A stretch of DNA of 64,000 bases from a virus. The DNA is taken from the IMG/VR virus record IMGVR_UViG_3300044475_000063, positions 1-64,000 of that record; one strand, written 5' to 3'. Of the stretch, positions 36,272-58,030 are shown in pieces; position 1 is the first letter of the stretch; the number at the start of each line of letters is the position of its first letter. Made by a program: the position numbers and the translations under genes. The notes below the pieces were generated by a model. It was not told where the DNA came from. It searched no databases and saw only the letters and a program-made list of their open reading frames with translations.

Positions 36272-36970
36272 ATGAACCTGATGCTTGTAAATACTAAAGA
36301 ACAGACCATGACAAGCAAGGAAATGGCTGAGCTTACAGAAAAGCGCCATGACAGCGTCAAACGGACCATTGAAAACCTTGCTTCTACTGGCGTGATCGGC
36401 CAACCACAAATTGTGGATGGAGAAAAAGCAGGCAACAACGTTGTTGAAAAGCTATATTTGTTTGGGAAGCGTGACAGCTATGTGATCGTTGCCCAGCTTT
36501 CGCCGCTGTTCACTGCCCGACTTGTAGACCGCTGGCAAGAGTTGGAATCCCGAGAATCCTCGGTAGATGGCTTTGAGATTCCCAAGACTTTTGCAGAGGC
36601 ATTGCGGCTTGCTGCTGACCAGCAAGAGACGATTGCAAAACAGGCCTTGCAGATTGAGACGAATGCGCCAAAGGTTGCATTTGCCGAAGCAATTCGCGCC
36701 ACTGAGGGCGTTTGCAGCGTTGAGAAGATCGCAAAAACGCTTGGCTGGGGGCGTAACAAGTTTTTCGACAGGCTGCGCACTGATGGCATTCTGATGGCTA
36801 ACAACCTGCCATATCAGAAGTACATTGACCGCGAGTATTTCACCGTCATTGAGCAGGAACCATACACGGATAGTAAAGGAGTCGTGCACCCTACGTTCAC
36901 GACTCGTGTAACGGGCGCTGGACAGGTGTTCCTTGCCAAAAAGTATGCAAACATCATGGGTGTAGTATGA
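36272..36970 (+). CDS. Rha-family N-terminus + KilAC/ANT antirepressor-like C-terminus
   Basis: SKEMAELTEKRHDSVKRTIENL (Rha-like). C-terminal KilAC-like block FAEALRLAADQ....AP.VAFAEA. Confidence 0.75.
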   Translation: MNLMLVNTKEQTMTSKEMAELTEKRHDSVKRTIENLASTGVIGQPQIVDGEKAGNNVVEKLYLFGKRDSYVIVAQLSPLFTARLVDRWQELESRESSVDGFEIPKTFAEALRLAADQQETIAKQALQIETNAPKVAFAEAIRATEGVCSVEKIAKTLGWGRNKFFDRLRTDGILMANNLPYQKYIDREYFTVIEQEPYTDSKGVVHPTFTTRVTGAGQVFLAKKYANIMGVV

Positions 36971-39890: not shown

Positions 39891-40400
39891 CTATATTTCT
39901 ATATCAGCCCAGCTTTTCCCAAGTTTTATCATGCTTACGGTCGAATGGTGAACATTGAAGAGTTTTCCTAGCTCTTTGTTCGACATTCTAATCATAGAGG
40001 CTAGCTTTATATATCTAGCCTCTTCTTTGGTTAAGATTGATCTAGGATTCAACTCGCCAAAAATAGGTCGGCATGGCGATCTGCCTTTTGAAACCATATC
40101 ATTTGAATTGTCTTGTGCAGTACCAAGAAAAAGATGATTTGGGTTGGTACAGATAGGGTTATCACATTTATGGCATACCATAAAATCACCCGGCTCTATA
40201 CCAAAATGCAAAGCATAAGAAATTCTATGCGCGAATACAGATTGTCCGCGCTTGCCAACATGGGCAAGCCTCGCGTATCCCTTTTTGTCTACGAAACCAT
40301 TCCAAGACCAGCAATTGTCTTGCTTGACAACCTTTGACAGGTATCTCTGTTCTATTTTTGACAGAGGATCATTGATAAGAGGTAAAATAAGAATAGCCAT
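39891..40400 (-). CDS. HNH homing endonuclease
   Basis: ATG at 40400 after GGAG. CWSWNGFVDKKGYA...AHRISYA...CHKCDNPICTNPNHLFLGT, with a C-terminal HTH-like tail. AT-rich. Confidence 0.85.
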   Translation of the reverse strand: MAILILPLINDPLSKIEQRYLSKVVKQDNCWSWNGFVDKKGYARLAHVGKRGQSVFAHRISYALHFGIEPGDFMVCHKCDNPICTNPNHLFLGTAQDNSNDMVSKGRSPCRPIFGELNPRSILTKEEARYIKLASMIRMSNKELGKLFNVHHSTVSMIKLGKSWADIEI

Positions 40401-40454
40401 GAAGACTCCATGAAAGTCATTTGTGGTTAAAAGCCAACACGTGTGCAACCACTG

Positions 40455-40493: not shown

Positions 40494-40569
40494 GCGGGGA
40501 TAGCTCAGTTGGTAGAGTCTCTGATTTCCAATCAGATTGTCGTCGGTTCAAGCCCGATTCCCCGCTCCA
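40494..40569 (+). tRNA. tRNA-Gly (anticodon UCC), CCA encoded
   Basis: Hand-folded cloverleaf. 7-bp acceptor GCGGGGA/TCCCCGC, D arm GCTC/GAGT, anticodon stem TCTGA/TCAGA with loop TTTCCAA, T arm GTCGG/CCGAT with loop TTCAAGC, discriminator U, CCA. Confidence 0.9.
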
Positions 40570-41022
40570 AGAATTAGCGAAGGCAGATAGCCATGAACAA
40601 AAGCGCGTGCGCAAGTAGTCATGCTGGCATACTGGAAGTAGCTAAAGCAAAGCCGCTAATGCGTTATTAGGAATTGCGCCACACAGTTCGGAAACTGCGG
40701 CATGTGGCAAGAATAGTTGGTCCGATACCGCAGGGGCGCTCGGGACAATAAACGCCCCAGCATAAGCGCCGCCCTCCTTTCCCCAGCTATCGCTAGTGGG
40801 CGCAACAAGTAATTAGGCGTGATTATGCAGAGCCAAGTACAAGGGCGCAGAGCGTGGAAGCCGCTAGTTGTTTGTCTCGCAAGAGACGCCACATAAAACC
40901 AGCCCGTGACGCCCTATTGCAGGGCATATGAGCGAACGAAGTAAGGGCGGCAGTCTTTGCATCTTAGTAGGCCAAGGAAACGTTGGTTGGTTTTATGTGG
41001 TGCAATGCTCGGGGATTTTTTT
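40570..41022 (+). ncRNA. candidate large structured RNA (or packaging-site region) downstream of tRNA
   Basis: No credible ORF. 16-bp stem 40889-904/40985-41000, GNRA hairpin 40874-87 and several further helices; U7 at 41016-22. Confidence 0.3.
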
Positions 41023-41035
41023 GTCTATTGCCTAT

Positions 41036-41047
41036 CTAGAGTAGAAT
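41036..41047 (+). promoter_or_regulatory. CTAGAGTAGAAT motif (-10-like) 40 nt upstream of terS
   Basis: 11/12 identical to 43796..43807 upstream of the portal gene. Confidence 0.4.
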
Positions 41048-41086
41048 GTCAAGACAGAATTCACCATCACAGATTCAAGGCAAAAC

Positions 41087-41509
41087 ATGGCACTTACTCC
41101 AAAGCAAGCACTATTCGTCAAAGAATACCTAATCGACCTGAATGCAACTCAGGCCGCGATTCGTGCTGGTTATTCGGAAAAGACGGCTTACTCTATTGGT
41201 GAAGAAAACCTGAAGAAGCCTGAAATTGCAGAGGCGATTGCCGAGCATCAACAGGCCAAGGCAAAGAAGCTAGATATCACTGTTGATACGATACTTGCGG
41301 AGCTTGAGGAAGCGCGTCAATTGGCTCTAGAAACTGGTAAGGCTGGCCCAGCAGTTCAGGCTTCGATGGGTAAGGCAAAGATTTTAGGTTTGGAAAAGCA
41401 AGTCATCGATCATACATCTAGCGATGGCACTATGACGCCTAAAGCGCCTATCGTTGTTGACAAGGATACTGCTGCGCAGGTGGCGGCGAATATCAATGGT
41501 GGCATCTGA
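41087..41509 (+). CDS. terminase small subunit (Terminase_2/P27 type)
   Basis: ALTPKQALFVKEYLIDLNATQAAIRAGYSEKTA motif. Confidence 0.85.
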   Translation: MALTPKQALFVKEYLIDLNATQAAIRAGYSEKTAYSIGEENLKKPEIAEAIAEHQQAKAKKLDITVDTILAELEEARQLALETGKAGPAVQASMGKAKILGLEKQVIDHTSSDGTMTPKAPIVVDKDTAAQVAANINGGI

Positions 41510-42926
41510 CGACCCAGAGGTAATCAAGGCAGTAACTCGCGCACTATGCCTTGAGGATCACCTATTCTTTACTCGCTACTTCTTTAAGCTGCGCGAGGGG
41601 ATTAAATTCCGCGTCAACTGGCACCATAAGCGCATGGCTGAGGCTATCCAGCGCGTGATTGATGGGCATTGCAAGCGGCTAATCATCAATGTGCCTCCTG
41701 GCTCGTCTAAGACGGAAATGGCGGTTATTAACCTGATTGCGCGTGGGCTTGCGATTAATCCTCGTGCGCGCTTCCTGCACCTATCGTACTCTGCTGACCT
41801 TGCCGAACTGAATAGCGCCAAGGCAAAGGAGCTAATCACGTCCAGCGAGTATCAAGAGTTATTCACGATCCCGATTAAGACCGACTCCAAGGCGCGGGGC
41901 CGCTGGAACGTGGTTGATGAAAAAGGCGTGTCTATCGGCGGATGCTATGCGACCTCGACGCTTGGTCAGGTAACTGGCTTTCGTGCCGGTCACATGGCTG
42001 ATGGGTTTCAGGGCGCGATCATCATCGATGATCCATTAAAGCCTGTAGACAGCCTATCAAAGACCAAGCGCGATGCAGTCAACAATGCCTTTATCAATAC
42101 CGTGCAGAGCCGCAAGGCATCGCCTGATACTCCTATCATCGTCATCATGCAACGCCTCGCAGACGAGGATTTAACGGGCTTCCTGTTGAATGGCGGCGAC
42201 GGCAAAGAGTGGGAGCATGTTTGCATCCCAGCTATTGACGACGATTCCGGCAAGAGCTATTGGCCTGAGAAAGAGCCTATCGAATCGCTCTTGCAACTTA
42301 AGGAAAAGGGTAACTTCACCTTTGAGGGGCAGTACCAGCAGCGACCATATGTGCTAGGTGGTGAAATTATCAGGGGCGAATGGTTCGGGCGCTATAGCGA
42401 ACTGCCGCCGCAGAAATGGTGTGTGCAGCGCGCCGTATTCGCTGATACAGCCATGAAAACAGGCGAGCAGAACGACTACACGGTATTTATTGATGCCGCG
42501 CTCTATACCGATGGCAAGGTACGTATCCTTAACCTATGGCGCAAGAAAGTGAATGCCGTGGGCCTTCTTCAATTAGCCAAAGAGGTTTGGGCCTCGACAG
42601 AAGGGCTAGCTAGCGCCATGTACATTGAAGACAAGGCATCTGGCACCGGCCTAATCCAGCAGCTACAGGAAAACGACGTATTTATCCCGGTTATCCCAAT
42701 CGAGCGCACCAAAGACAAGCTAACCCGCGTCATGGAAGTGCAGCCAAGGATTCAGGCTGGCGGCGTTTTGCTGCCTACCTATGCGCCTTGGGTAACTGAG
42801 TTCATTAGCGAATGTGAGGCATTCACTGCAAACGATAGCCATAAACACGATGACCAAGTAGACCCGCTTGTAGATGCTGTAAATACGTTCATGGCTAACA
42901 GTTTCAACCTATCAGCCTTGGTTTAG
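41496..42926 (+). CDS. terminase large subunit
   Basis: ATG at 41496 overlapping the terS end. Walker A-like PPGSSKTE; C-terminal nuclease-type acidic motifs (HDD). Confidence 0.9.
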   Translation: MVASDDPEVIKAVTRALCLEDHLFFTRYFFKLREGIKFRVNWHHKRMAEAIQRVIDGHCKRLIINVPPGSSKTEMAVINLIARGLAINPRARFLHLSYSADLAELNSAKAKELITSSEYQELFTIPIKTDSKARGRWNVVDEKGVSIGGCYATSTLGQVTGFRAGHMADGFQGAIIIDDPLKPVDSLSKTKRDAVNNAFINTVQSRKASPDTPIIVIMQRLADEDLTGFLLNGGDGKEWEHVCIPAIDDDSGKSYWPEKEPIESLLQLKEKGNFTFEGQYQQRPYVLGGEIIRGEWFGRYSELPPQKWCVQRAVFADTAMKTGEQNDYTVFIDAALYTDGKVRILNLWRKKVNAVGLLQLAKEVWASTEGLASAMYIEDKASGTGLIQQLQENDVFIPVIPIERTKDKLTRVMEVQPRIQAGGVLLPTYAPWVTEFISECEAFTANDSHKHDDQVDPLVDAVNTFMANSFNLSALV

Positions 42927-42940
42927 ATAAGAGAACATAA

Positions 42941-42963
42941 ATAAAAACCCGCCGAAGCGGGTT
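42941..42963 (-). terminator. terminator of the minus-strand repeat-protein gene
   Basis: AACCCGC-cgaa-GCGGGTT with the T run on the minus strand only. Confidence 0.6.
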
Positions 42964-42970
42964 GATTATG

Positions 42971-43345
42971 TTAGCCGTCGCCGGAGCCGTAGCCGTAGCC
43001 GGAGCCGTAGCCGTAGCCGGAGCCGGAGCCGTAGCCGTAGCCGGAGCCGGAGCCGTAGCTGTCGCCGGAGCCGTCGCCGTAGCCGGAGCCGTAGCCGGAG
43101 CCGTCGCCGGAGCCGGAGCCGTAGCCGTAGCCGGAGCCGGAGCCGTAGCTGTCGCCGGAGCCGTCGCCGTAGCCGGAGCCGTAGCCGGAGCCGTCGCCGG
43201 AGCCGTAGCCGGAGCCGTAGCCGGAGCCGGAGCCGTAGCTGTCGCCGGAGCCGTCGCCGGAGCCGTCGCCGGAGCCGTCGCCGGAGCCGTCGCCGGAGCC
43301 GTAGCCGTAGCCGGAGCCGTCAGTAAAAGTTTTATTGGTAGCCAT
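42971..43345 (-). CDS. (Gly-X)n low-complexity protein, G/S/Y/D only after residue 10
   Basis: MATNKTFTD then GSGYG/GSGDG repeats. ATG at 43345 after AAGGA; overlaps the upstream gene by 14 nt. All codons are C-ending (GGC/TCC/AGC/TAC/GAC). Confidence 0.6.
   Translation of the reverse strand: MATNKTFTDGSGYGYGSGDGSGDGSGDGSGDGSGDSYGSGSGYGSGYGSGDGSGYGSGYGDGSGDSYGSGSGYGYGSGSGDGSGYGSGYGDGSGDSYGSGSGYGYGSGSGYGYGSGYGYGSGDG
42975..43320. repeat. hexanucleotide-based tandem repeat array (gccgga/gccgta/gccgtc/gctgtc)
   Basis: Read directly from the sequence. Always a multiple of 6 nt, so it stays in frame. Confidence 0.9.
43021..43200. repeat. perfect 2 x 90-bp tandem duplication inside the array
   Basis: 43021-43110 is identical to 43111-43200 base for base. 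Confidence 0.9.
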
Positions 43346-43706
43346 CAATGCTGTCCTTTGCAGCTTGGGTAGCTGGGATCAGTTCGCAGATGCCAGTCAG
43401 ATAAATTTCTGGGTTGACCACATCGACTTTCCCGCCGTCTTTTTTAAGGCCGTGTTGAGCAACGCCCGATAGCGCAACGCCGTCTTTAGCTTTCCACGAC
43501 CACAGGCGGCGCGAGTTTTTCAGAACTGCGGTATCGCCGTCAACGCTTACGACTTCGCCAGCATGCACACCAGCGGCATAGCAGCGTGCGATTACGTACT
43601 TGCCAACGAATGGATGAGGTAATACGGCTTGATATACTTGAGCCGACGCGCCAAACAAGGCGGCAAGTTCTTTAGCTTGGCCGATGGTGAGTTCGTTAAT
43701 GTTCAA
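43332..43706 (-). CDS. hypothetical protein (124 aa), partner of the repeat protein
   Basis: RBS present, globular-looking sequence. Transcribed away from the portal gene. Confidence 0.6.
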   Translation of the reverse strand: MNINELTIGQAKELAALFGASAQVYQAVLPHPFVGKYVIARCYAAGVHAGEVVSVDGDTAVLKNSRRLWSWKAKDGVALSGVAQHGLKKDGGKVDVVNPEIYLTGICELIPATQAAKDSIDGYQ

Positions 43707-43795
43707 TTTACTTCTCCTATGGTTTTGCCTTTCGGCGTTGTGCTACGGATGACTAATGATAACTAAGGTTTCTCTATCTGTATATTTGAAATAAA

Positions 43796-43807
43796 CTATA
43801 AAATACT
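43796..43807 (+). promoter_or_regulatory. CTAGAGTAAAAT motif (-10-like) 35 nt upstream of portal gene
   Basis: See 41036..41047. Flanked by the 9-bp inverted repeat TTTCTCTAT/ATAGAGAAA (43759-67/43806-14). Confidence 0.4.
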
Positions 43808-43841
43808 AGAGTAAAATAGAGAAATACTATGAGGGGTTAAG

Positions 43842-45197
43842 ATGGGCCGACCATTGGGAAGTAAGAACAAGCCGAAAGAGCCGCAGCAGAATGTAGTTGT
43901 GACGGACGGGTACGCTGAGGCATTTACGGGAGCAGGAACAAATCGGGACCGTAGCAGCTACACGCGCATCGGGCGCACCGCCATGCTGCAACAGATGGAA
44001 TGTTCGCTACTGTACTTGGGTGATGGCTTTGCGCGCAAGATTGTGGACGTTCCAGCAGAGGAAATGACGCGCTCGGGCCTTGAGCTTGAGGATTTAGAGG
44101 ACGAGGAACTAGAGCAATTCGTCATGGCGCGTCTTGATGATCTGGACGCCATGCGGCACTTTAACGATGCGGTGGCGTGGTCTAGGTTGCACGGCGGCGC
44201 TGTGATGATCTTCGGCCTGAATGATGGCGGCACGCTTGATGTGCCTCTTAATCCCGAAGGGATCAAGAGCGTTGAATTTCTCCGAGTCTATGACCGCTGG
44301 CAAGCGACTATCCAGACCCGCGTGACCGATCCGAACAGCCCGGACTACGGCAAGCCGGACATCTGGCTCATTTCGCCGCTTGATGGTGCGCAACCGTACA
44401 AAGTGCATAACTCGCGCCTTTGGATGTTCGACGGCGACCGCATTCCAGACTTTGACCGCAATGCCAATCTCGGCTGGGGCGCATCGGCCCTGCAAGCCTG
44501 CCAAGATCAGCTTAAGCGCCTCGGCATGGGCCACCAATGGACGCTGGCGATTCTTGAGAGGGCGCAACAGGCAGTTCATAAGATTCCACGCCTCGGCCAA
44601 ACGCTGCAATCCCCAGGCGGCGAAGCAATGGTACGCAAGCGCGTGGACGTTGTAGACATGGTGCGCGGCATCCTGAATACGATTGTTGTAGACGGAGAAG
44701 AGGATTACCAAGTAACAACAGCTACGCTAACCGGCTATACGGACGTGCTAGACCGCTTTGCAGAGGCTTTGGCTGCTACTAGTGGCATCCCAGTATTTAA
44801 GCTGATGGAGCGCACGCAAGGGGGGTTGAGCAATACCGACAAGGGCGCTAGCGATGCTTGGTATGCTCGCATTGAGTCATGGTGGAATAATCTGCTTCGT
44901 AAGCCTCAAGACTTGCTAATCCAGTACATCATGATTTCTAAGAACGGCGAAGCGCCAGATTACAAGCTGTGCATGGCCCCGCTGTCGGTACTGAGCGCGA
45001 CTGAGCAAGCAGAGGTTGATTTGAAGAAAGCACAGGCATTGCAGGCTCGTGCAGATGCAGCTATTAAATTCATGACTGGTGGTGTTCTTGCGGCGGATGA
45101 TGTACGCCCTTCTATCGCGGAAGAATATGGTCTGAAAGAAGATAGCCAAGCGCCGGGGATTATTGAACCAGATGACGGCATGACAGAAAATGGCTAA
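43842..45197 (+). CDS. portal protein (DUF1073-like)
   Basis: 451 aa; position between terL and the MuF-like gene. Confidence 0.7.
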   Translation: MGRPLGSKNKPKEPQQNVVVTDGYAEAFTGAGTNRDRSSYTRIGRTAMLQQMECSLLYLGDGFARKIVDVPAEEMTRSGLELEDLEDEELEQFVMARLDDLDAMRHFNDAVAWSRLHGGAVMIFGLNDGGTLDVPLNPEGIKSVEFLRVYDRWQATIQTRVTDPNSPDYGKPDIWLISPLDGAQPYKVHNSRLWMFDGDRIPDFDRNANLGWGASALQACQDQLKRLGMGHQWTLAILERAQQAVHKIPRLGQTLQSPGGEAMVRKRVDVVDMVRGILNTIVVDGEEDYQVTTATLTGYTDVLDRFAEALAATSGIPVFKLMERTQGGLSNTDKGASDAWYARIESWWNNLLRKPQDLLIQYIMISKNGEAPDYKLCMAPLSVLSATEQAEVDLKKAQALQARADAAIKFMTGGVLAADDVRPSIAEEYGLKEDSQAPGIIEPDDGMTENG

Positions 45198-46203
45198 ACA
45201 ATGGTTATATCCTCATGCTCAAGAGAGGCAACTTGATAAAGCGATGCAGGCTTATGCACGTCAGGTGATGGCTGACGTTGATGCTGTTATAGTATCCAAC
45301 ATGGGTTACTTCATGTCGAAGGCTAAGCTTGATGCTGAATCTAGCGAAGAACCAGAAGAACAGGAGTCCTGGAGTGAAGAGCTAGCACTTTTAGTGGCTA
45401 TTCTTTTGACGCGATCTGCTAGCTATGATTTCTCAGCAATCTACACTGCTGGTAGAAACATTGCCGCATTTAATGATTATCAATTCAAATCAGTAATTAA
45501 TTCTGTATTAAACGTTGTTCCGCGAATAGCAGAGCCTTTTTTAAACGGAATTCTTTCTGATTGGTATAAAAAAACCACGGATTTAGTTAAAGACAAAGCT
45601 TCTGAATACATAAAGTCAGTAGAGGCAATTATTAGAAATCAGTCGGCAATTGAATCAACTCAAAAAGCAGCAAAAGAAGTAATAGCAAAGAGAAAAGAAG
45701 TTTTCTCAGGCAAAATGACATTCACTGCTATTAATGAAACAGGGATGCTGAACTCAATGCTGCAACGTAGCCGCTTGATGGCAATTGGAGCGCTGTCGTA
45801 CATCTGGACTACTCAACGGGACGAGCGAGTTAGGCCGCTTCACCAGCAAAGGCAAGGTAAGATGTTTTCATGGACTGTTCCTCCATCAGATGGGCATCCA
45901 GGTATGCCGATTCGTTGCCGATGCATCGCTACGCCAGTAATTGATTTCGATTTTGAAGGACAATTCCCAACTGATCCAGCAAAAGTTTTTGAGCTTCGGC
46001 AATATCGACGTGGAGTTTCAGAAAATCAGCGCCTAGAAAGAAATAAAGATTATGGCGCAGCATTTAGAAGTGGGAAATTGACGCCCGGGGAAATTATTTC
46101 TCTTAACAGAGATAAGACCTCTGCACGATCTGTTGTAAACTCCTTATTGACAAGCGGGCGACTCACCCAATCCCAACTAAACAATCTCTACAAGGATTTG
46201 TGA
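45190..46203 (+). CDS. head morphogenesis protein (Mu F / SPP1 gp7 family)
   Basis: TTQRDERVRPLHQQRQGKMF...GHPGMPIRCRC motif. Confidence 0.85.
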   Translation: MAKQWLYPHAQERQLDKAMQAYARQVMADVDAVIVSNMGYFMSKAKLDAESSEEPEEQESWSEELALLVAILLTRSASYDFSAIYTAGRNIAAFNDYQFKSVINSVLNVVPRIAEPFLNGILSDWYKKTTDLVKDKASEYIKSVEAIIRNQSAIESTQKAAKEVIAKRKEVFSGKMTFTAINETGMLNSMLQRSRLMAIGALSYIWTTQRDERVRPLHQQRQGKMFSWTVPPSDGHPGMPIRCRCIATPVIDFDFEGQFPTDPAKVFELRQYRRGVSENQRLERNKDYGAAFRSGKLTPGEIISLNRDKTSARSVVNSLLTSGRLTQSQLNNLYKDL

Positions 46204-46685
46204 TGGCTACTAGAGATAGAGACATGGGCTTAAAAAAAATACTGAATGGTATGCGTGTGCTGAAGCGTAAATCAATCACTATCGGCCTTCACGAAGATTT
46301 AGGAATTCATCCCGGAGAGCATAATTCAGAAGGTCTTACTCATGCTCAGATCGGGGCTATACAGGAGTTTGGCGCTACGAGGACATTCTTGGACGGACAT
46401 ACGATGGAGATTCCGTCTCGCCCATTCACAAGAGATTCTTTCGATAGAAACCTAGAAAATATATGGCGAGACATACAGAGGTCATTTGAGGCAGCAAAAC
46501 CAACTGGAAATTTTATACAAGCAATGTTTGATGTTGGCAAGCGTCATGCAGAATACCAGCGGAAAGTAATGGATGCTTGGTCTGATCCGCCAAATTCTGC
46601 GCGGACTATCAAGTACAAAAAGAAAAATGATCCGCTTGATTGGACTGGTGCAATGATCCATGCAGTAAAGGCAAAAATAGAATGA
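46200..46685 (+). CDS. HK97 gp10-like protein (second paralog)
   Basis: 161 aa; similar blocks to 4425..4883. Confidence 0.5.
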   Translation: MMATRDRDMGLKKILNGMRVLKRKSITIGLHEDLGIHPGEHNSEGLTHAQIGAIQEFGATRTFLDGHTMEIPSRPFTRDSFDRNLENIWRDIQRSFEAAKPTGNFIQAMFDVGKRHAEYQRKVMDAWSDPPNSARTIKYKKKNDPLDWTGAMIHAVKAKIE

Positions 46686-49438: not shown

Positions 49439-50530
49439 ATGGCTACCTATCAAAGATACGACCGCGCCGAATTTAAGGCAACCAAGACTGACGAGGGCTT
49501 TCTAGTCGATAGCCCTATCGTCGGTCGAGTCGGCATTCAAGAGTATCGCCGCGCTGATGGCACGATGCGACGTGAGTTGCGCTTGCCTGAGAATGTATTC
49601 CATGCCGATGCGCTGGCTTCAATGCGCGGCAAGCCGATTACTAGCGGCCATCCGGGCTCGGGAAAAGTTACTGCGGCTGATTCTCACCGCGTGACTATTG
49701 GAACGATCCTGAGTGAAGGTCGTCAAGATGGCGATAATATGCGCACCGACATTGTTATCCATAATGTGGCGGCAATGGGGAAGAATAAAGAGCTTTCCCT
49801 AGGATATACGTGCCATATGGACGAAACGCCCGGTGTGCATCCGGTGTATGGCCCTTACGACGCTATTCAAGGCGTCCCAATTACCAATCATTTATCCGTT
49901 GTCCCCGTTGCTCGCGCTGGCGCAATCGCCCGCTTGAACTTGGATAGCATGGATCAGGAAGATTTTTCAACCCAGCAGGAGCAACAAACTATGAGCATGG
50001 TCAAAGTACGACTTGACAGCGGCTTAGAGTATGAATGCGCTCCCGAAGTCTCGGTGGCGCTCGACAAGCTGCGCTCCGATGCTGCGGAAGCTGCAACCAA
50101 ACTCGCGGCCATTCCAACCCTGACGGCAGAGCGCGATACGCTGAAAGCGCGTGTTGACGGCTTTGCGGCAGAACTGACTAAGGCTAAAGACGAAGGCAAG
50201 GCCGCTGGCCGCGCCGAAGTTGAAGCTAAGGCCAAGCTGGATGCGGTTGCTACTGCATTCAAGATCGACGCTAAAGACATGACTGAGCGCCAAGTCAAGG
50301 AAGCGGTTATCAAAGCCGTTACCCCAGCGCTGGTTCTGGATGGCAAAGACGATGCCTATATCGATGTTGCCTTCGCAATGGCCCAAGAGTTCAAAGGCGA
50401 TGCAGCCATGGCAGATCAGCGCCAGAAAGCGCAACATCGCAACGACGGAGGCGATAACAAAGCCCAAGGCAGCATGTCGGCGCGTGACAAAATGATTGCT
50501 CGTATGAGCGGTAAGAAGGAGGACAAATAA
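49439..50530 (+). CDS. prohead scaffold/protease-like protein (DUF2213-like N-domain + coiled coil)
   Basis: 363 aa. No obvious SD; TATTAT lies 7 nt upstream of the ATG. Confidence 0.7.
   Translation: MATYQRYDRAEFKATKTDEGFLVDSPIVGRVGIQEYRRADGTMRRELRLPENVFHADALASMRGKPITSGHPGSGKVTAADSHRVTIGTILSEGRQDGDNMRTDIVIHNVAAMGKNKELSLGYTCHMDETPGVHPVYGPYDAIQGVPITNHLSVVPVARAGAIARLNLDSMDQEDFSTQQEQQTMSMVKVRLDSGLEYECAPEVSVALDKLRSDAAEAATKLAAIPTLTAERDTLKARVDGFAAELTKAKDEGKAAGRAEVEAKAKLDAVATAFKIDAKDMTERQVKEAVIKAVTPALVLDGKDDAYIDVAFAMAQEFKGDAAMADQRQKAQHRNDGGDNKAQGSMSARDKMIARMSGKKEDK
50011..50271. repeat. 261-bp tract identical to 1..261
   Basis: Direct comparison of the two stretches. Confidence 0.85.
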
Positions 50531-51018
50531 TGCCTATCCCACAAACTACCTTCGGCCAGTACTCGGCTGCTGGCTTCGCTGGCTTGCTGTACGATTCTGG
50601 CTTCCGCGACACTATGTCTTATTCGGCAGAGGGCGCGATTCCATTCGGCACCTTCGTTAAACTGGGTACGAACAAAGAACGCCAAGTTCTGGCCCCTACC
50701 ACTGCTGCCGGTCAAGCCGCGCTGCTGATTGGCGTAGCTGCCGCAAGCGCCATGGCAGAACAAGCCTACCCTTCGACTGGCGCGGCTGCCGCATATGCTG
50801 CTACTGAAAGCGTATCGGTGCTGAAAGACGGCCGTATTTGGGTCCAAACCAATGATGCCGTAGTAGCTGGTGCAACCGCTAACTTTGTGCTGGCTAACGG
50901 CACTGTTACCGATGAAGCCGTTACTACCGGCATCGAAGCCTTCACGCAACTGACCGTGAAGTTTATCACCGGCACGACTGCTGCTGGCCTCGCTGTTGTG
51001 GAGATTGCGCCAAAATGA
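50530..51018 (+). CDS. head decoration/cement-like protein (copy 2)
   Basis: Paralog of 514..1002. Confidence 0.55.
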   Translation: MPIPQTTFGQYSAAGFAGLLYDSGFRDTMSYSAEGAIPFGTFVKLGTNKERQVLAPTTAAGQAALLIGVAAASAMAEQAYPSTGAAAAYAATESVSVLKDGRIWVQTNDAVVAGATANFVLANGTVTDEAVTTGIEAFTQLTVKFITGTTAAGLAVVEIAPK

Positions 51019-51995
51019 ACATGAAAACTGACAACATGCACTACGATGCCCAAGACCTGCGCATCATCGAAAACACCGGCCTGCTGCGTGAGGATGCTGG
51101 CGAGTCGGTATTCTTCGCTCGACAACTGGAGTATGTGCGCTCCAAGACCTATGATGTTGAGTACGTCAACCTGTCGGCAATGGAACTGTTCCCGATTGAT
51201 ACTTCGGTTCCCTCTGGCGCGAAGTTCATTACGTGGCGTCAATGGGACGGCGTAGGCTCGGCAAAGATCATCGCCAACTATGCGGACGATCTGCCACGCG
51301 TTGACGTGCAAGCGCTGGAAATGACCACTCCAATCCGTTCGATTGGTGACAGCTACGGCTACGACGTGCAAGAGATTCGTTCGGCGCAGTTCGCTGGCGT
51401 GGCTCTGGACGCAAAGCGCGCTACCCAGGCTCGCAAGGTCATCGACCAGAAGTTCAATCAACTGGCATGGTTTGGCGACACCGTATCAGGTCTGCCGGGC
51501 TTCCTGTCGAACGCGAATATCCCTGCTGTGGTTCTGGCTGCTGATGGTACTGGCTCGTCCAAGACCTTCGCAAGCAAAACGCCAGATAATATCATCCGCG
51601 ATATGAATGCTTTGGTGAACTCGATCTTCGTTACCACGAAGGGCATTCACCGCGCTAACGAACTGTGGATGCCTCTGGCTCAGTATGCCTACATTAGCTC
51701 GACTGCTCGCAGCGCAACCAGCGATACGACCATTCTCGACTTCTTCCTCGCCAACAACCCGTTCATTCAATCGGTCAAGCCGATCTTCGAACTGACTGGC
51801 GCTGGCGCTGGCGGTGTTGATCGCATGGTGGCTGCTGAAAACAGCGCTGATAACTACCAGATGAACATCACCATGCCGTTCATGCAGCACCCTCCACAGC
51901 CTCGCAACCTGTACTTTGAAGTCCCTTGCGAAGCCCGCTTCGGCGGCGTAACCATCGAACGTCCGCTGGCATTTGCATACGCTGACGGCATCTAA
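51015..51995 (+). CDS. major capsid protein (copy 2)
   Basis: Paralog of 999..1979 with few aa changes. Confidence 0.8.
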   Translation: MNMKTDNMHYDAQDLRIIENTGLLREDAGESVFFARQLEYVRSKTYDVEYVNLSAMELFPIDTSVPSGAKFITWRQWDGVGSAKIIANYADDLPRVDVQALEMTTPIRSIGDSYGYDVQEIRSAQFAGVALDAKRATQARKVIDQKFNQLAWFGDTVSGLPGFLSNANIPAVVLAADGTGSSKTFASKTPDNIIRDMNALVNSIFVTTKGIHRANELWMPLAQYAYISSTARSATSDTTILDFFLANNPFIQSVKPIFELTGAGAGGVDRMVAAENSADNYQMNITMPFMQHPPQPRNLYFEVPCEARFGGVTIERPLAFAYADGI

Positions 51996-52023
51996 ACTCG
52001 CGTGATGGTGAGTGTGTAGCACT

Positions 52024-52051
52024 AGCCCGCCCTTCACCGGGCGGGCTTTTT
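52024..52051 (+). terminator. intrinsic terminator after capsid gene (copy 2)
   Basis: Same hairpin as 2008..2036. Confidence 0.8.
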
Positions 52052-52067
52052 ACTTTTGGGGAATTAC

Positions 52068-53414
52068 ATGGCACTTTTCGGGCGTACAAAACAGCAGGCG
52101 CTAGCTGCGATAGCGCGCACAAAAGATCGCAAGGGGCGTCGTCGCGTAGGTGGAGGGCAGGGGAATATTGTTCCAGCAGTTTCGCCTCTGCGTTTTGTTA
52201 CCACGCAAAACAGGATGGCTAGCGGCCTTGGAACCGTTCCTGCAAATCGTTCTGCATGGGACTTCCGTATGCCTTACGTAATCGCCAGTGGCGACGTGGA
52301 TGGTATCGTTTTCACATGGACCAATCAGAACCCAGCAGCCCCAGACTCAACCGCGCTTTCGCCTATTGTTCTGAATGACGTCTACATCGAAAACTCTAAC
52401 GCAACCGCTGCAAAACAGCTTTCGCTCGACGGACAAAGCTACCCATACACGCTGGTATCTGGAGCCAATGATATCCGGCATGTGAAATTGCTCCCATCCG
52501 ACCTTGGCGTTTCAGTTTTCACGCCCGGCGATACCTTGTACGTAAAAGGCCGTGGCAGCATGACTCCTGGTATGCAGTTCCCGAACATGGCAGACCGTAT
52601 TCCAGTATCGGACGCTAGCAAAATTTTGTGGACCCTCTACGACCCTACCGCTACTACGCCATCCGCGCTGTCAACGCCGGGAGTCCAGACGGTTGTATCG
52701 GGGGCTGCCTTCCCGATTACCAGCAGCGGCGGATTCTGCCCGTTTGCTCTCGGCACGTTTGTGCAGCCGTTGGCCTCTCGTAAGCCAACGTTTGCCGGCT
52801 TCGGCGACAGTAATTTGTTTGGCTTCCGGGATACCGCCCTTTTGTACCATGGAAAAGGCGAATTCCAGCGCATGCTTACTGGCAACGGAACGAATAGCGA
52901 CCTCATGGCAGGCGGGAATTTCTCTGTGACTGGTTACACGATTCAGCAGATTAACCACCCAAAAATCATCTACTGGAGCCAGTTTGCGGACAAGATTATT
53001 GATGAAGTTCTGGTCAATTCGTTTGGCTCCACTGGTGTAACCGACCAAGCCACTATTCGGCCTATTAAACAAGCTCTATGGGACGCCTATAAATCAGCAA
53101 ACCCAAATGCTACGGTGTATAGCTGCGATGTCGGCCCGCGCACTAATGGTGCATGGACACTTGCAGATCAGTCGGACCAAACTTATTTTGCTGGCTTTGG
53201 TCCGGGCGGCAACATTGAGACGTTCCGCACATGGTTTATTGCACAGGCCGGGCTGCCGAACACCTACAACACGCTGGTGCAGTTCACTGCATGGCGCGGC
53301 AGTCCAGACCCGCTGAAATGGCCGGGGGGTGGCCTTACTGATGACGGCACTCACGCGCTATCAACGACCGTAGCAGCAAAAGCAGCACAACTGCGTAGTA
53401 TTGTTTTGTCTTGA
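52068..53414 (+). CDS. virion-associated protein: same basic N-terminal leader + SGNH/GDSL-type esterase
   Basis: Leader MALFGRTKQQALAAIARTKDRKGRRRVGGG. FAGFGDSNLFG (block I) and DDGTHAL (block V). Confidence 0.6.
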   Translation: MALFGRTKQQALAAIARTKDRKGRRRVGGGQGNIVPAVSPLRFVTTQNRMASGLGTVPANRSAWDFRMPYVIASGDVDGIVFTWTNQNPAAPDSTALSPIVLNDVYIENSNATAAKQLSLDGQSYPYTLVSGANDIRHVKLLPSDLGVSVFTPGDTLYVKGRGSMTPGMQFPNMADRIPVSDASKILWTLYDPTATTPSALSTPGVQTVVSGAAFPITSSGGFCPFALGTFVQPLASRKPTFAGFGDSNLFGFRDTALLYHGKGEFQRMLTGNGTNSDLMAGGNFSVTGYTIQQINHPKIIYWSQFADKIIDEVLVNSFGSTGVTDQATIRPIKQALWDAYKSANPNATVYSCDVGPRTNGAWTLADQSDQTYFAGFGPGGNIETFRTWFIAQAGLPNTYNTLVQFTAWRGSPDPLKWPGGGLTDDGTHALSTTVAAKAAQLRSIVLS

Positions 53415-53484
53415 TATTTAGACATAAAAACAGAAATCTTCTGCAAGGTTATAATCTAATTTCATCATCACTACGGAGAATCAA

Positions 53485-53772
53485 ATGAAAATCGAAAACA
53501 TTAGCGCACGTCTGTACATTCTTTCGGATGGTACTAAGCTGATCCCTAACGAAACTACCAAAGGCGTTTCTGACAGTCTTGCAAAAGAAGTCGAGGGCAT
53601 CAAAGAACTAAAGGTGACGCAAGAAACTAAGGCTCAAGAAGTTGAGTTCAAGGAAGTACCAACTACTGTCAAGGAACTGAAAGCGGCGCTTGATAGTCTG
53701 AATGTTGAGTACGCATCGAATGCCGACAAGGCTGAACTGCAAGCCCTGTACGACGAAAACAAAGCCAAGTAA
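53485..53772 (+). CDS. hypothetical structural-module protein (copy 2)
   Basis: Paralog of 3744..4031. Confidence 0.6.
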   Translation: MKIENISARLYILSDGTKLIPNETTKGVSDSLAKEVEGIKELKVTQETKAQEVEFKEVPTTVKELKAALDSLNVEYASNADKAELQALYDENKAK

Positions 53773-53774
53773 TC

Positions 53775-54194
53775 ATGACGACCGCGCTGGAATATTTTCG
53801 CATCATCGGCAAGCAGTTCGCCGCGCTATCTGACGCTGAGGTACAGGCATGGTTAGATATGGCGACGACACTTGGTGCTGCCGGTTGTCTCTTGGGCGAT
53901 CCGGCTAACCTTGCTACGGCGCTTTATGCTGCACACTTGCTGCAACTAGATGCGGAGAATTCCAGCGGCGAAGGCGGGCGCGGGCCTGTGAAGTCAGAGA
54001 AAGAAGGCGACTTGGCCCGCTCCTATGGTACTGGCGGCTATACCGATGGCTGGCTAGGTTCCACAGGCTACGGGCAACAGTACGCAAACATGCAGCTTGG
54101 ATGCACTGGCGCTACGATCATGACGCGCTATGGTCAAGATATCCCACAAGGAATCGAGGTAATCAATGGCCTCCCGCCATACTACAGACCGTGA
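53775..54194 (+). CDS. head completion protein, DUF4054-like (copy 2)
   Basis: Paralog of 4034..4453. Confidence 0.55.
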   Translation: MTTALEYFRIIGKQFAALSDAEVQAWLDMATTLGAAGCLLGDPANLATALYAAHLLQLDAENSSGEGGRGPVKSEKEGDLARSYGTGGYTDGWLGSTGYGQQYANMQLGCTGATIMTRYGQDIPQGIEVINGLPPYYRP

Positions 54195-54624
54195 TTTGGG
54201 CCTAAAGCGCTTCATGCGAGAACTTCAGAAGGCGCGAGTCACTGAGGTTGTAGTGGGTGTGCAGCAAGGCTCTGATAACGCCGATGGTGAATCTATTGCT
54301 GAGTATGCCGCATACAATGAGTTCGGCACAGAAAAGATTCCTGAGCGCTCTTTTATGCGCTCAGCGTTTGATGAAAACGTAAATGACCTGAGCAATCAAC
54401 TGGATCGAAGCTATGCGCAGATTCAAGCAGGAACGATGACCGTTTATCGTGCGCTCGGCTTAGTCGGTTTGCGCCATCAAGATCAGATACAGCACAAGAT
54501 TGATACGAACGTGCCGCCGCCCAATGCGCCAGCAACGATTGCAGCTAAAGGATCAAGCCACACGCTGATTGACACAGGCGCTATGCGCGCTTCAATTCGA
54601 TACATTATCAGGCCCGTACGATGA
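54166..54624 (+). CDS. HK97 gp10-like protein (copy 2)
   Basis: Paralog of 4425..4883. Confidence 0.5.
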   Translation: MASRHTTDRDLGLKRFMRELQKARVTEVVVGVQQGSDNADGESIAEYAAYNEFGTEKIPERSFMRSAFDENVNDLSNQLDRSYAQIQAGTMTVYRALGLVGLRHQDQIQHKIDTNVPPPNAPATIAAKGSSHTLIDTGAMRASIRYIIRPVR

Positions 54625-54959
54625 GTTTTAGAAAGCCACAAACGATTATCCGCACTACGCCGGGACAGTATGCCGATGGCAAGTGGGTAGAAGGCGCACA
54701 AGTTACTGTGCCTATTTTGGCATCGGTTCAGCCTGTAACGGCAGAAGATCAGATCGTCATGCCAGCCGGTAAGCGATTGTCAGACTACGTGAAGCTTTAC
54801 ACCTCGACGGAGCTAATCCCGTTGAGTGAAGGTAGTCAGCAGCAGCCTGACCGCTTAGTTTGGCGCGGCAAGGAATATGAATGTATTGAGCTTGGAGTAC
54901 GACAGATGCGGGTAATTGACCACTTCAAAGCGATCTTCTCATTGGTGCAGCAATCATGA
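54621..54959 (+). CDS. neck/tail-completion protein (copy 2)
   Basis: Paralog of 4880..5218. Confidence 0.55.
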   Translation: MSFRKPQTIIRTTPGQYADGKWVEGAQVTVPILASVQPVTAEDQIVMPAGKRLSDYVKLYTSTELIPLSEGSQQQPDRLVWRGKEYECIELGVRQMRVIDHFKAIFSLVQQS

Positions 54960-55474
54960 TTTCAGATACCGTATTGCAGCGCCTAATTGTGCAAATCAGC
55001 GGCGAACCATCCGGCAAAGTTATCTGGATGAATGAGAATGCGCCGCGCCCCGTTTTGCCATATCTGGCGATTCGGGTTAGCCCTGCGCGCCGCATCAACA
55101 AAGACCGCTATTCAGACGTAGATGCTAACGGAATTCAGACGGTAGTAGGCGACCGAGAATTTACCTTGAGTGTGCAAGCGTTCGGCTACGATAGCCCTGT
55201 CTCGTACTTGCAAGACTTTGCCGACAAGCTGCAACTAATCACGAACAATGACCGCTTCCGCGCCCAAGGAATGGCTTTGCGCGATACAAGTACGGTCATG
55301 GATATTTCTTCGTTGCTGAGCAATACTAAAATCGAGAAACGCGCCAATCTAGATTTGACTATCGGCTATCGCTCGGTGCAGACGGATAATGTGGGCGTCA
55401 TCGAAACCGCAAACATCGAGGGGCGCGACAATGGTATTAATTCGCCCGTTTATACCATCATCGCTAACGTTTAA
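54956..55474 (+). CDS. neck/tail terminator-like protein (copy 2)
   Basis: Paralog of 5215..5733. Confidence 0.55.
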   Translation: MISDTVLQRLIVQISGEPSGKVIWMNENAPRPVLPYLAIRVSPARRINKDRYSDVDANGIQTVVGDREFTLSVQAFGYDSPVSYLQDFADKLQLITNNDRFRAQGMALRDTSTVMDISSLLSNTKIEKRANLDLTIGYRSVQTDNVGVIETANIEGRDNGINSPVYTIIANV

Positions 55475-58019: not shown

Positions 58020-58030
58020 AAGGAAGAGAG

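Follow-up and report, generated by a model that had tools for sequence, protein, structure and literature searches.

What is a gene for a polymer made almost only of glycine, serine, tyrosine and aspartate doing between the terminase and portal genes of a phage? The question is raised by a minus-strand insert in a 64,000-nucleotide stretch of viral DNA (positions 1 to 64,000 of IMG/VR record IMGVR_UViG_3300044475_000063; hereafter the window). We find that the repeat gene is real and that, together with the small gene upstream of it, it forms a self-contained two-gene unit found in a very large number of phages, with no function described in the papers and databases that we could search.

A two-gene unit lies antisense between terL and the portal gene

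We first examined whether the features described in the original prediction were present, and all of them were, so the observation is confirmed. The unit comprises a promoter-like site, two overlapping genes and a terminator-like hairpin (Table 1). The flanking genes are correctly identified as terL (PF17289, phrog_38) and the portal gene (PF06381), and in distant relatives the portal and terL features abut. The AT-rich region upstream of the unit contrasts with a GC content of 49% for the window and 77% for the array. The hairpin is followed by TTTATTTATG on the minus strand and only GATTATGTTA on the plus strand; because it lies 20 nt after the terL stop, it may also attenuate plus-strand late transcription. 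The single sigma-70-like site is weak on its own, being no better than expected from shuffled sequences, although the relatives L006, L007 and L009 have a clearer TTGCAA-N16-TATGAT just after an upstream terminator hairpin.

Table 1. Positions of the unit and its flanks in the window.
Position	Strand	Feature	Detail
41454..42926	+	Terminase large subunit (terL)	Flank
42936..42963	-	Intrinsic-terminator-like hairpin with T-tract on the minus strand	Hairpin at 42946-42963: 7 bp, 5 GC, TTCG loop
42971..43345	-	Gene 2, 124 aa: MATNKTFTD followed by (Gly-Ser/Tyr/Asp)n	ATG start 8 nt after AAGGA (43358-43354); overlaps gene 1 by 14 nt
42977..43318	-	(GGC-NNC)n array	6-nt units with higher-order periods of 12 and 18
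43016..43205	-	Exact 100-bp direct duplication	43016-43115 = 43106-43205, offset 90
43332..43706	-	Gene 1, 124 aa: DUF6948 protein, Sm/LSm-like predicted fold	TTG start 7 nt after AGGAG (43718-43714)
43707..43841		AT-rich (33% GC) divergent intergenic region	Between the portal start and the cassette start
43756..43784	-	Sigma-70-like promoter candidate	TATACA-17-TATCAT; 9 of 12 matches
43842..45197	+	Portal protein	Flank

The 115 residues that follow MATNKTFTD consist only of G (55), S (29), Y (19) and D (13), and all 115 repeat codons end in C (GGC 55, TCC 26, TAC 19, GAC 13, AGC 3). The original prediction had counted about 16 Asp, where there are 13, and had placed glycine at every second position, whereas Gly occupies 55 of the 58 alternate positions; the other three are Ser (AGC, one step from GGC) in the recurring unit GAC-AGC-TAC. 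It had also reported a perfect 2 x 90-bp duplication, which is contained within the 100-bp duplication found here. We cannot exclude that this perfect duplication is influenced by assembly of a repeat. Tandem Repeats Finder gave periods of 12 and 18 with scores of 435 and 423, so the array is not a chance feature. The period of two residues (6 nt) rules out collagen-like (G-X-Y)n and RTX (GGXGXDXUX) repeats, which have periods of 3 and 9 residues. Only one (GX)n array is present in the 64-kb window and no reverse transcriptase was seen among the neighbours scanned, a set that does not cover the whole window; we therefore rejected a diversity-generating retroelement, which would need a nearby template repeat copy and a reverse transcriptase. 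A tRNA-Gly(UCC) at 40494-40569 was considered as serving the array and rejected, as it decodes GGA/GGG and not GGC.

Gene 1 is a DUF6948 protein with a predicted Sm/LSm-like fold

The interpretation offered in the original prediction was supported only in part, because it treated the unit as an oddity of this phage and gene 1 as simply a globular protein. A Pfam search placed gene 1 in DUF6948 (PF22253; E 7.9e-26, 90.5 bits against a gathering cutoff of 27, covering profile positions 1-85 of 85). The family has about 1,850 clusters at 50% identity (1852 counted), and a homology search returned 1797 homologues, with 66-82% identity among the 120 listed. An AlphaFold2 model (pLDDT 84) has a helix at 8-19, strands at 37-42, 46-56, 59-70, 98-103 and 107-111, and an extra helix at 78-85, for comparison with the N-terminal helix and five-stranded, strongly bent beta-sheet of the Sm/LSm fold. 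The top 50 Foldseek PDB hits are all Sm/LSm or annotated as Sm/LSm-like, but with E-values of only 0.013-0.13 and target-normalised TM-scores of 0.46-0.70. BFVD hits include proteins named 'RNA binding protein' and 'Sm-like domain containing protein'. By sequence, no LSM or Hfq Pfam match was found at E <= 0.01, and a PDB sequence search gave only a weak uL24 hit (E 0.09).

The residues counted as invariant across the family are R41, G46, V47, H48, G50, R66, R67, W69, W71, S80 and E108. Among 142 cluster representatives R41 is 100% conserved, R67 98%, W71 96%, E108 96%, W69 90% and R66 89%, while H48 is 85% conserved and replaced only by F or W. This conservation resembles that of a binding site, although the protein is near-neutral (pI 6.8) and not an obviously basic nucleic-acid binder. 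A catalytic Cys/His pair was rejected because C42 and C107 are not conserved in distant members.

These features raised the possibility of a self-inhibited effector with toxin–antitoxin-like logic, in which DUF6948 would be the active RNA-binding or RNA-cleaving component and the acidic, disordered polymer its labile inhibitor, occupying the active groove as the MazE tail does in MazF. Two small overlapping genes with what look like their own promoter and terminator, mobile and moron-like in position, a small predicted beta-barrel with invariant Arg, His, Glu and Ser, and an acidic partner predicted to be disordered would fit. We consider this unlikely. PADLOC, Pfam and NCBIfam gave no toxin or antitoxin match (PADLOC nothing, NCBIfam only a sub-threshold hit, Pfam only the DUF), the putative catalytic His48 is Phe or Trp in 12% of clusters, the partner has no DNA-binding domain, Foldseek finds Sm proteins and not MazF/CcdB, and covalent fusions of the two parts exist, which is unusual for a toxin and its antitoxin. 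A type III (ToxIN-like) module was also rejected, since the array is downstream, has a 6-nt unit and is translated, rather than forming untranslated tandem RNA repeats of about 34-36 nt upstream of the toxin gene.

A (Gly-X)n ORF follows DUF6948 in every assessable locus

In each of the DUF6948 loci that we could assess (about 95), from Proteobacteria, Chlorobi and human-gut phages, a (Gly-Ser/Tyr/Asp)n ORF follows directly on the same strand, usually overlapping the DUF6948 stop. These comprise 80 IMG/VR loci, 4 MAG contigs, 4 contigs found by exact protein look-up, and cultured or GenBank phages (Koroua, NK-7, PhiPLPE, IKEMa6-1, CV-1-33 and a human-faecal contig). The arrangement also holds for (GX)n proteins that carry unrelated extra domains. 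One homologue, P0378, is a natural single-chain fusion of the two parts, and the profile of phrog_18306, the only PHROG match and itself of unknown function, matches both. A single (GX)n protein, the DUF7666-(GX)n protein of locus L096, has no recognisable DUF6948 upstream.

Other searches were negative. Megablast of 41000-46500 against GenBank phages and complete E. coli genomes gave no match; a metagenome scan with the 20-mer GATGGCTACCAATAAAACTT returned only 8 chance matches with no DUF6948; the exact window proteins are absent from a 15-billion-protein collection, and protein P0001 has no contig on record. Literature searches on DUF6948, DUF7666, the repeat motifs, fibroin heavy chain in phages, and phage low-complexity proteins or condensates found nothing relevant.

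The array is translated in the Gly-X frame and changes length rapidly

The original prediction would have been undermined if the plus-strand AVAG frame were the translated one, and we therefore compared the frames. The stop falls within 3 codons of the array end in 55 of 68 arrays for the Gly-X frame, against 9 and 7 for the other two frames. Ser is encoded by both TCY and AGY, Gly by GGG or GGT in a few arrays, and in-frame fusions to globular domains exist. The AVAG frame is not conserved as protein: in arrays whose X codons end in T, the genetic code turns it into (Ala-Arg/Ile)n. We conclude that the Gly-X frame is the translated one. Arrays differ in length between loci whose DUF6948 3' ends are 100% identical, so that the recent expansion originally proposed is plausible. 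Array length is very variable overall (span 16-128 aa). Residue order and length are not conserved but composition is, and function should therefore depend on composition and valency.

A non-functional by-product, either a slippage-expanded microsatellite that happens to be open or an assembly artefact, might be suspected because all forward frames of (GGCNNC)n are open and contigs often break in the array. This reading is close to refuted by the conservation of frame, start overlap and stop placement across about 95 loci and of composition despite synonymous turnover.

Gly is GGC in 92% of 2187 codons, and GGC makes up at least 90% of Gly codons in 66 of 84 arrays whatever the flank GC (36-70%), while neighbouring genes use GGC for 15-57% of Gly. 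One explanation would be that the array also, or mainly, works at the RNA or DNA level, the Sm-like protein binding the (GGC-N3)n tract of its own transcript or of DNA, much as the TRAP ring reads spaced triplets, and so regulating the cassette or marking a site; the predicted Sm-like fold belongs to a class of RNA-binding proteins. This seems quite unlikely given the strong protein-level signal above, and the 6-nt unit has only three fixed bases. A search of Rfam gave no hit, and the array RNA folds less well than shuffled versions (z +4.85), which led us to reject a stable RNA structure. The GGC rule nevertheless offers a clean, testable case of selection on a synonymous site.

The X residues are similarly restricted. 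Across arrays, one-step neighbours are nearly excluded (Phe 15 against Tyr 665, Glu 30 against Asp 541, and Thr, Ala and Pro about 27 together against Ser 947). As Ser-OH, Tyr-OH and Asp-COO- are all oxygen nucleophiles, the polymer could be a high-capacity acceptor or decoy substrate for phosphorylation, nucleotidylation, ADP-ribosylation or glycosylation, or a cation binder. We regard this as improbable, since no modifying enzyme is conserved next to the pair, DUF6948 is too small and lacks any known catalytic fold, and Thr would be expected for most O-linked modifications.

The polymer is acidic (pI 4.05, charge -12.5), and AlphaFold2 gives the homologous tail of P0378 no secondary structure (pLDDT 41-54). 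The 'silk-like' label of the original prediction thus holds only for the period of 2. A silk-like fibre, or a virion or matrix protein of stacked beta-sheets, would fit the period-2 Gly, the position of the unit inside the head-morphogenesis block of this window, and the GenBank annotation of the NK-7 homologue as 'fibroin heavy chain-like'. It is very unlikely, because Ala is absent, Asp is frequent, the tail is predicted to be disordered, there is no signal peptide, array length is very variable, and in most phages the pair lies among early and not structural genes.

The unit usually lies among recombination and replication genes

Pfam-annotated neighbours of the pair are mostly recombination or replication proteins (Gp157, AAA_24, PDDEXK/DUF2800, ERF, RecT, SSB, NinB, YqaJ, SNF2, primases and methylases), and very few are structural proteins; the position in this window is therefore atypical. 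No conserved third gene lies beside the pair, as the most frequent Pfam family among 94 downstream and 102 upstream neighbours has only 3 members. The neighbourhood signal may, however, only reflect the accumulation of accessory genes in early regions. A cassette about 90% identical lies in a different context in L111, with homology to the window starting only near the ribosome-binding site, and the unit thus behaves as a mobile cassette. It occurs in phages reported as strictly lytic (PMC11445585) and in phages that carry recombination and regulatory genes like those of temperate phages, which argues for a role in the infection cycle.

This context makes a decoy or mimic aimed at the host possible. 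The flexible polymer of alternating carboxylates and aromatic rings would imitate single-stranded nucleic acid and soak up a host ssDNA/RNA-binding protein, nuclease or defence sensor, with DUF6948 as its chaperone, loader or specificity factor. The acidity of the polymer fits, as does its place beside recombination genes, where phages keep RecBCD and nuclease inhibitors (lambda Gam, T7 gp5.9). Neighbours include anti-defence-type genes (Tad2-like, methylases and pentapeptide-repeat proteins), the cassette is mobile and mosaic, as anti-defence genes are, and rapid array length change fits an arms race. We nevertheless think it less likely than the model given below. Known DNA mimics such as Ocr and ArdA are rigid folded proteins whose acidic surface imitates B-DNA, whereas this polymer is predicted to be disordered and shares only the acidity, no Pfam or PHROG match or hit to any known anti-defence family was found, DUF6948 is unusually conserved for an arms-race gene, and the idea does not explain why a conserved partner, or a fusion to it, is always required.

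Interpretation of the pair

We are highly confident that the locus holds one copy of a widespread, self-contained phage module. Gene 1 encodes a small DUF6948 protein whose predicted fold is an Sm/LSm-like bent beta-barrel, and gene 2, translationally coupled to it in this view, encodes an acidic, tyrosine-rich (Gly-X)n polymer that is probably intrinsically disordered and changes length quickly by in-frame slippage of 6-nt units. The module moves between phage genomes as a cassette and here has landed antisense between terL and the portal gene, with its own terminator and probably its own promoter, so that the original view of a real and probably autonomous unit is supported.

How it works is a tentative inference. 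We suggest that the two products act as one physical unit, a nucleic-acid-binding-type core plus a separately encoded disordered tail, which would make a split Hfq/SSB-like nucleic-acid-binding assembly. The invariant Arg/Arg/Arg, Trp/Trp, His(Phe/Trp), Glu surface of DUF6948 would bind the Asp carboxylates and Tyr rings of the array, a chemistry that resembles binding of phosphate plus base in single-stranded nucleic acid. One array offers many equivalent sites and would string together several cores, thereby gating the core's nucleic-acid site, building a multivalent assembly or condensate, or both, early in infection and alongside the phage's recombination and replication proteins. Our analysis establishes the gene structure, conservation, pairing, fusion, translation frame, array instability, predicted fold, predicted disorder and genomic neighbourhoods; core–array binding (both structure predictions were of single chains), nucleic-acid binding, oligomerization, timing and biological role are inferred, and the fibre, condensate, decoy and cation-binding roles first proposed likewise remain hypotheses. 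Some observations sit poorly with the model. The near-exclusive use of Ser, Tyr and Asp, with alternatives one mutation away almost absent, points to more specific chemistry than generic stickers and spacers; about 11% Asp and no basic residues should oppose self-association; and the GGC constraint is not explained.

A more far-reaching but unlikely possibility is that the pair is a previously unrecognized class of phage machinery working at two levels at once, an Sm-like ring with a hypervariable polymer. The polymer would act as a multivalent nucleic-acid-like ligand that builds or gates a ribonucleoprotein-type assembly or condensate in the infected cell, while the (GGC-N3)n mRNA or DNA tract would be read directly by the same Sm-like protein, which would explain the GGC codon fixed across lineages.

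The partner that follows DUF6948 is one of the most extreme low-complexity proteins a phage encodes. The strict pairing, natural fusions and invariant Arg/Trp surface make the pair a well-posed and cheap problem. Cultured carriers (Pectobacterium Ymer genus, Ralstonia NK-7, Iodobacter PhiPLPE) are available for genetics. If the polymer is a nucleic-acid mimic or a condensate scaffold, it would add a new principle to how phages organize or protect their DNA metabolism. In practice, the array breaks short-read assemblies and the ORF is left unannotated in some records (for example PhiPLPE), so the family is under-counted.

Comparison with known systems

The closest comparison is with Hfq, with its acidic C-terminal domain, and with the Sm/LSm proteins SmB, SmD1 and SmD3, with their (Arg-Gly)n tails. 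By predicted fold gene 1 encodes a small bent beta-barrel of Sm type, joined, here mostly non-covalently, to a long low-complexity tail that in the Sm proteins is also a Gly-X dipeptide repeat, and an aromatic position (H48, or F/W) and Arg residues are conserved, as in Sm nucleotide pockets. However, there is no sequence match to LSM or Hfq families, and the tail is acidic and aromatic (S/Y/D) rather than basic (R) and is usually a separate polypeptide. Bacterial SSB and T7 gp2.5 combine an OB fold with a Gly-rich disordered linker and an acidic, aromatic tip; the pair likewise combines a small predicted barrel with a Gly-rich acidic segment predicted to be disordered, in the same genomic neighbourhood as SSB and recombination genes, but there is no homology, the fold hit is Sm-like rather than OB, and the tail is a strict period-2 repeat of hypervariable length.

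FUS-family low-complexity domains, which undergo phase separation, share the dense [G/S]Y[G/S] motifs (19 Tyr, each flanked by Gly or Ser, in 115 residues) and the predicted disorder, but they have few charged residues and are Gln/Asn-rich, whereas the array has 11% Asp, no Gln or Asn, and strict alternation with Gly. The crystalline repeat of Bombyx fibroin heavy chain (GAGAGS/GAGAGY) also has Gly at every second position, with Ser and Tyr among the X residues. Here, however, Ala is absent (0 in this array; 24 of about 2,300 X codons across arrays), 22% of X is Asp, no beta structure is predicted, and the protein is a cytoplasmic phage product of 25-142 aa. MazE–MazF type pairs, in which an acidic disordered antitoxin tail inhibits a small beta-barrel toxin, resemble the unit in comprising two small overlapping genes in a mobile cassette, here for a predicted beta-barrel protein and an acidic partner predicted to be disordered, but differ in gene order as well as in the respects given above. 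Finally, although the residues, organisms and known roles differ and there is no homology, the EBNA1 Gly-Ala repeat and the staphylococcal Ser-Asp repeats share with the array 6-nt coding units, in-frame length polymorphism and a marked codon bias inside the repeat.

The two-gene unit and its flanks

We first read the minus strand of positions 42800-43950 and listed its ORFs, and the observation set out in the original prediction, an antisense pair of small genes whose second member encodes a (Gly-X)n protein, is confirmed. The features of the window and of the other loci referred to below are collected in the table. The product of gene 2 is MATNKTFTD followed by 115 residues of composition G55, S29, Y19 and D13; Gly occupies 55 of the 58 alternate positions, the three exceptions being Ser (AGC), and all 115 repeat codons end in C. 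The count of about 16 Asp given earlier should therefore be 13, while the 2 x 90 bp duplication described there is correct but conservative, because the exact duplication is 100 bp long. Tandem Repeats Finder scores the array at 435.

The 135-bp region upstream of the pair is 33% GC, against 77% in the array, and the single promoter-like hit on the minus strand is weak by itself. The pair is flanked by terS, terL, the portal gene and a gene for a Mu-F-like head protein. Plus-strand late transcripts must read through the terminator hairpin of the cassette, and through the antisense cassette itself, to reach the portal gene, unless the AT-rich spacer holds a second promoter; the promoter scan found none on the plus strand.

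Coordinates of the features of the window and of related loci
Feature	Location	Strand	Remarks
Gene 1 (DUF6948)	window 43706..43332	minus	124 aa; TTG start preceded by AGGAG
Gene 2 ((Gly-X)n)	window 43345..42971	minus	124 aa; ATG start preceded by AAGGA; overlaps gene 1 by 14 nt
Array	window 42977-43318		
Exact duplication	window 43016-43115 = 43106-43205		100 bp, offset 90
Hairpin	window 42946-42963		7 bp, GC-rich; T-run only on the minus strand; 20 nt after the terL stop
HNH endonuclease gene	window 39891-40448	minus	just upstream of terS
tRNA-Gly(UCC) gene	window 40494-40569		just upstream of terS
TnpB/IS605 OrfB-like gene, Lar-like protein, YqaJ exonuclease with RecT, Rha/KilAC antirepressor	window 21896-22942; 25215-30181; 36272-36970		RecT/YqaJ module at 28.5-30.2 kb
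First repeated block	window 1-2123 and 50011-52139		91% identity
Second repeated block	window 3738-5735 and 53479-55476		90% identity
Third repeated block	window 6244-12998 and 55489-62239		79% identity
Tandem copies of the whole (GX)n gene	L032 5401-5885; L041 5383-5657		two copies after a single DUF6948 gene
Array fused in frame to the downstream ORF	L040 about 3206-3700; L051 about 2870-3100		
Unannotated (GX)n ORF of Iodobacter phage PhiPLPE (EU876853)	L098 1164-1409		81 aa, downstream of gp84
Cassette and surroundings in a relative	L111 1130-3416		

Gene 1 belongs to a large family that is paired with a (Gly-X)n gene

Gene 1 matches Pfam DUF6948 at 90.5 bits, against a cutoff of 27. A word-indexed search found 1797 homologues, of which the best 120 are 66-99% identical, and an exhaustive profile search found 1852 clusters at 50% identity with E <= 1e-3. 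All named members are 'hypothetical', and no paper in the literature searched contains the name DUF6948.

We then asked what accompanies DUF6948 elsewhere. Eighty IMG/VR loci and 4 MAG contigs were retrieved through DUF6948, together with four contigs found by exact protein look-up. In every locus with sequence downstream, an ORF follows of the form M-[A/T/P]-[S/T]-[N/K]-K-x-[F/W]-x-x-(G-[S/Y/D])n, usually overlapping the DUF6948 stop by 8-17 nt. The apparent exceptions fall into three groups: arrays that start with GTG, contigs that end too soon, and two arrays fused to the next ORF, in loci L040 and L051. In L050, a locus nearly identical to L051, the array has its own stop, so the fusion in L051 arose by a recent deletion.

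The same arrangement holds in cultured or GenBank phages, although tblastn found only 17 such records. These include Pectobacterium phage Koroua; Ralstonia phage NK-7, whose partner is annotated 'fibroin heavy chain-like protein'; Iodobacter phage PhiPLPE, where the partner ORF is present but not annotated; Vibrio phage IKEMa6-1; Chlorobiaceae phage CV-1-33; and a human-faecal contig. ORFs of this type are probably missed often.

A search with the repeat protein itself found (GX)n proteins carrying unrelated extra globular domains. Four of these that were looked up lie directly downstream of a DUF6948 gene, and a fifth, P0378, is a natural fusion of DUF6948 and (GX)n in one chain. The profile of phrog_18306 matches both parts. 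In proteins P0271-P0273, P0300, P0349, P0283, P0314, P0383, P0389, P0302 and P0327 (loci L089-L096), the (Gly-Ser/Tyr/Asp)n segment is joined to several unrelated small domains, namely DUF7666, a C-terminal region that looks DUF7666-like by eye, an N-terminal 'GAC...W' domain and an 'IKTFNGDKVYIIDD' domain. Nearly all of those looked up are still directly downstream of DUF6948, but one DUF7666-(GX)n protein has no recognisable DUF6948 upstream.

The Gly-X frame is translated and its array evolves fast

The Gly-X frame is translated and under protein-level selection. In 55 of 68 arrays it reaches a stop within 3 codons of the array end, whereas the other two frames do so in 9 and 7 arrays. Ser is encoded by both TCY and AGY, and a few arrays use GGG or GGT throughout for Gly. 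One-step neighbours of the favoured residues are almost absent: Phe 15 against Tyr 665, Glu 30 against Asp 541, and Ala 24 plus Thr and Pro about 3 against Ser 947. A polymer acting as a modification acceptor or cation binder remains a possible, although improbable, reading, and a non-functional ORF is the least likely of the explanations considered. Translation of the antisense frame had been named beforehand as something that would refute the original prediction. That frame would read (Ala-Val/Gly)n here but, by the genetic code, (Ala-Arg/Ile)n in the 25 arrays whose X codons end in T, and is therefore not conserved as protein.

Some loci have identical sequence over the last 330 nt of DUF6948 yet carry arrays of different length, 85 against 67 residues in one case and 127 against at least 134 in another. 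In two loci, L032 and L041, the whole (GX)n gene is present in tandem copies. Array span ranges from 16 to 128 residues, with a median of 66, and many contigs end inside the array. The perfect 100-bp duplication in the window fits this behaviour, although assembly effects cannot be excluded.

Glycine codon usage in the arrays

Across 64 distinct arrays, 2019 of 2187 Gly codons (about 92%) are GGC. In 84 arrays in loci L002-L099 and the window array, GGC makes up at least 90% of Gly codons in 66, with no dependence on flank GC (Spearman 0.07, flanks 36-70% GC). This holds even in a 37% GC gut-phage locus whose neighbouring genes use GGC for only 15% of Gly. The third base of the Ser, Tyr and Asp codons switches together, being C in 55 arrays and T in 25, with only 4 mixed arrays, and it follows flank GC weakly (rho 0.32, p 0.003). 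Concerted evolution of the units, combined with selection for an S/Y/D mix, can explain the two classes, but cannot explain GGC being fixed across lineages. The tRNA-Gly(UCC) encoded upstream of terS in the window reads GGA/GGG, so it does not serve the GGC-only array.

The array mRNA (42971-43345, minus strand) has an MFE of -146 kcal/mol, against -176.7 +/- 6.3 for dinucleotide-preserving shuffles (z +4.85), and is therefore less structured than expected for its composition; no Rfam family matches. The preference for GGC may arise from avoidance of Shine-Dalgarno-like GGAG/GGUGAU hexamers, demand on tRNA-Gly(GCC), avoidance of GGC:GCC pairing, or direct reading of the tract by the partner protein. 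We regard an RNA- or DNA-level role for (GGC-N3)n as unlikely overall.

Predicted structure of the two products

AlphaFold2 models DUF6948 with a mean pLDDT of 84, as a helix, a disordered linker, five strands with one inserted helix, and a C-terminal helix. The 50 best Foldseek matches in the PDB are all Sm/LSm or annotated as Sm/LSm-like, with probability 0.89-1.0; however, E is only 0.013-0.13 and target-normalised TM is 0.46-0.70. In the viral library the matches are other DUF6948 proteins, uncharacterised proteins, one 'RNA binding protein' and one 'Sm-like domain containing protein'.

Across 142 cluster representatives, the conserved polar and aromatic residues are R41 (100%), R67, W71, E108, W69, R66, S80 and H48, the last being replaced only by Phe or Trp. 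We infer from this pattern a stacking and phosphate- or carboxylate-binding site rather than a catalytic centre. C42 and C107 are invariant in the close subfamily but are not conserved more widely. A self-inhibited effector with toxin-antitoxin-like logic is a further, rather doubtful, explanation.

For the natural fusion P0378, AlphaFold2 is confident about the core (pLDDT about 90) but gives the (GX)n tail no secondary structure (pLDDT 41-54), and we consider a silk-like structural protein very unlikely. The polymer of the window has a pI of 4.05 and a charge of -12.5, whereas DUF6948 is near neutral. A nucleic-acid mimic or decoy directed at the host is possible, and is the strongest of the alternatives to the mechanism proposed below, though it too is only a tentative reading.

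Genomic location of the pair

Among 196 neighbouring ORFs from 56 loci, the Pfam-annotated ones are mostly recombination and replication functions, including Sipho_Gp157, AAA_24, PDDEXK/DUF2800, ERF, RecT, SSB, NinB, YqaJ, SNF2 helicases, primases, methylases and a RecA-dependent nuclease. Only four or five structural families appear, and no third gene is conserved. Downstream neighbours are co-directional in 38 of 50 loci. In some genomes the pair forms its own transcription unit: loci L006, L007 and L009 have a terminator followed by TTGCAA-N16-TATGAT upstream of it. The TTG start after AAGGAGAA recurs in five of the seven relatives aligned with the window.

In Koroua the pair lies antisense among tail genes, and in NK-7 it lies next to terS. 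The relative L111 carries a cassette about 90% identical in nucleotide sequence to that of the window, but its upstream neighbour is different and homology to the window begins only near the ribosome-binding site; an unrelated 575-aa ORF lies between the cassette and a portal gene, and the 50-kb contig ends inside the array. The window has its own RecT/YqaJ recombination module, but the pair is not there. The position between terL and the portal gene is therefore atypical and reflects a mobile, mosaic cassette, which supports the original description of it as an insert. The three repeated blocks show that the window holds the late regions of two related phages, which could be tandem or neighbouring prophages, or a join of two relatives. 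The Ymer-genus carriers of the pair are reported as strictly lytic (PMC11445585), and a purely lysogen-specific role is therefore unlikely.

A tentative mechanism

The analysis establishes a conserved pair that is sometimes fused, a small barrel protein (by predicted fold) with a binding-site-like invariant surface, a partner whose composition and valency are conserved but whose sequence is not, and an early, DNA-metabolism neighbourhood. What follows is inference. From these findings together we infer that DUF6948 binds the array directly. The array is the only element common to all partners. The combination would then behave like a nucleic-acid-binding core with a detachable acidic, aromatic disordered tail, which would gate the binding site of the core, cross-link several cores into a multivalent assembly, or both. 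The closest working analogies are Hfq with its C-terminal domain, SSB with its linker and tip, and the (Arg-Gly)n tails of Sm proteins. We favour this explanation over its rivals, but only tentatively.

Comparison with known systems

The genes of the window are ordinary members of families that databases already list as unknown (DUF6948 and phrog_18306). The obligatory pairing, the nature of the partner and the codon rule were not described in any of the literature and databases searched. The original interpretation is partly supported, in that the description of the pair as an insert holds, whereas the likeness to silk holds only for the period of 2. The assignment of the predicted Sm-like fold is only moderately supported, and any function proposed for the pair is inferred. 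No characterised system shares the architecture: the defining features that were tested for silk, FUS-like domains, TA modules, DNA mimics, DGRs, collagen and RTX repeats were not found, or only in part, and we therefore place the pair outside known kinds of system.
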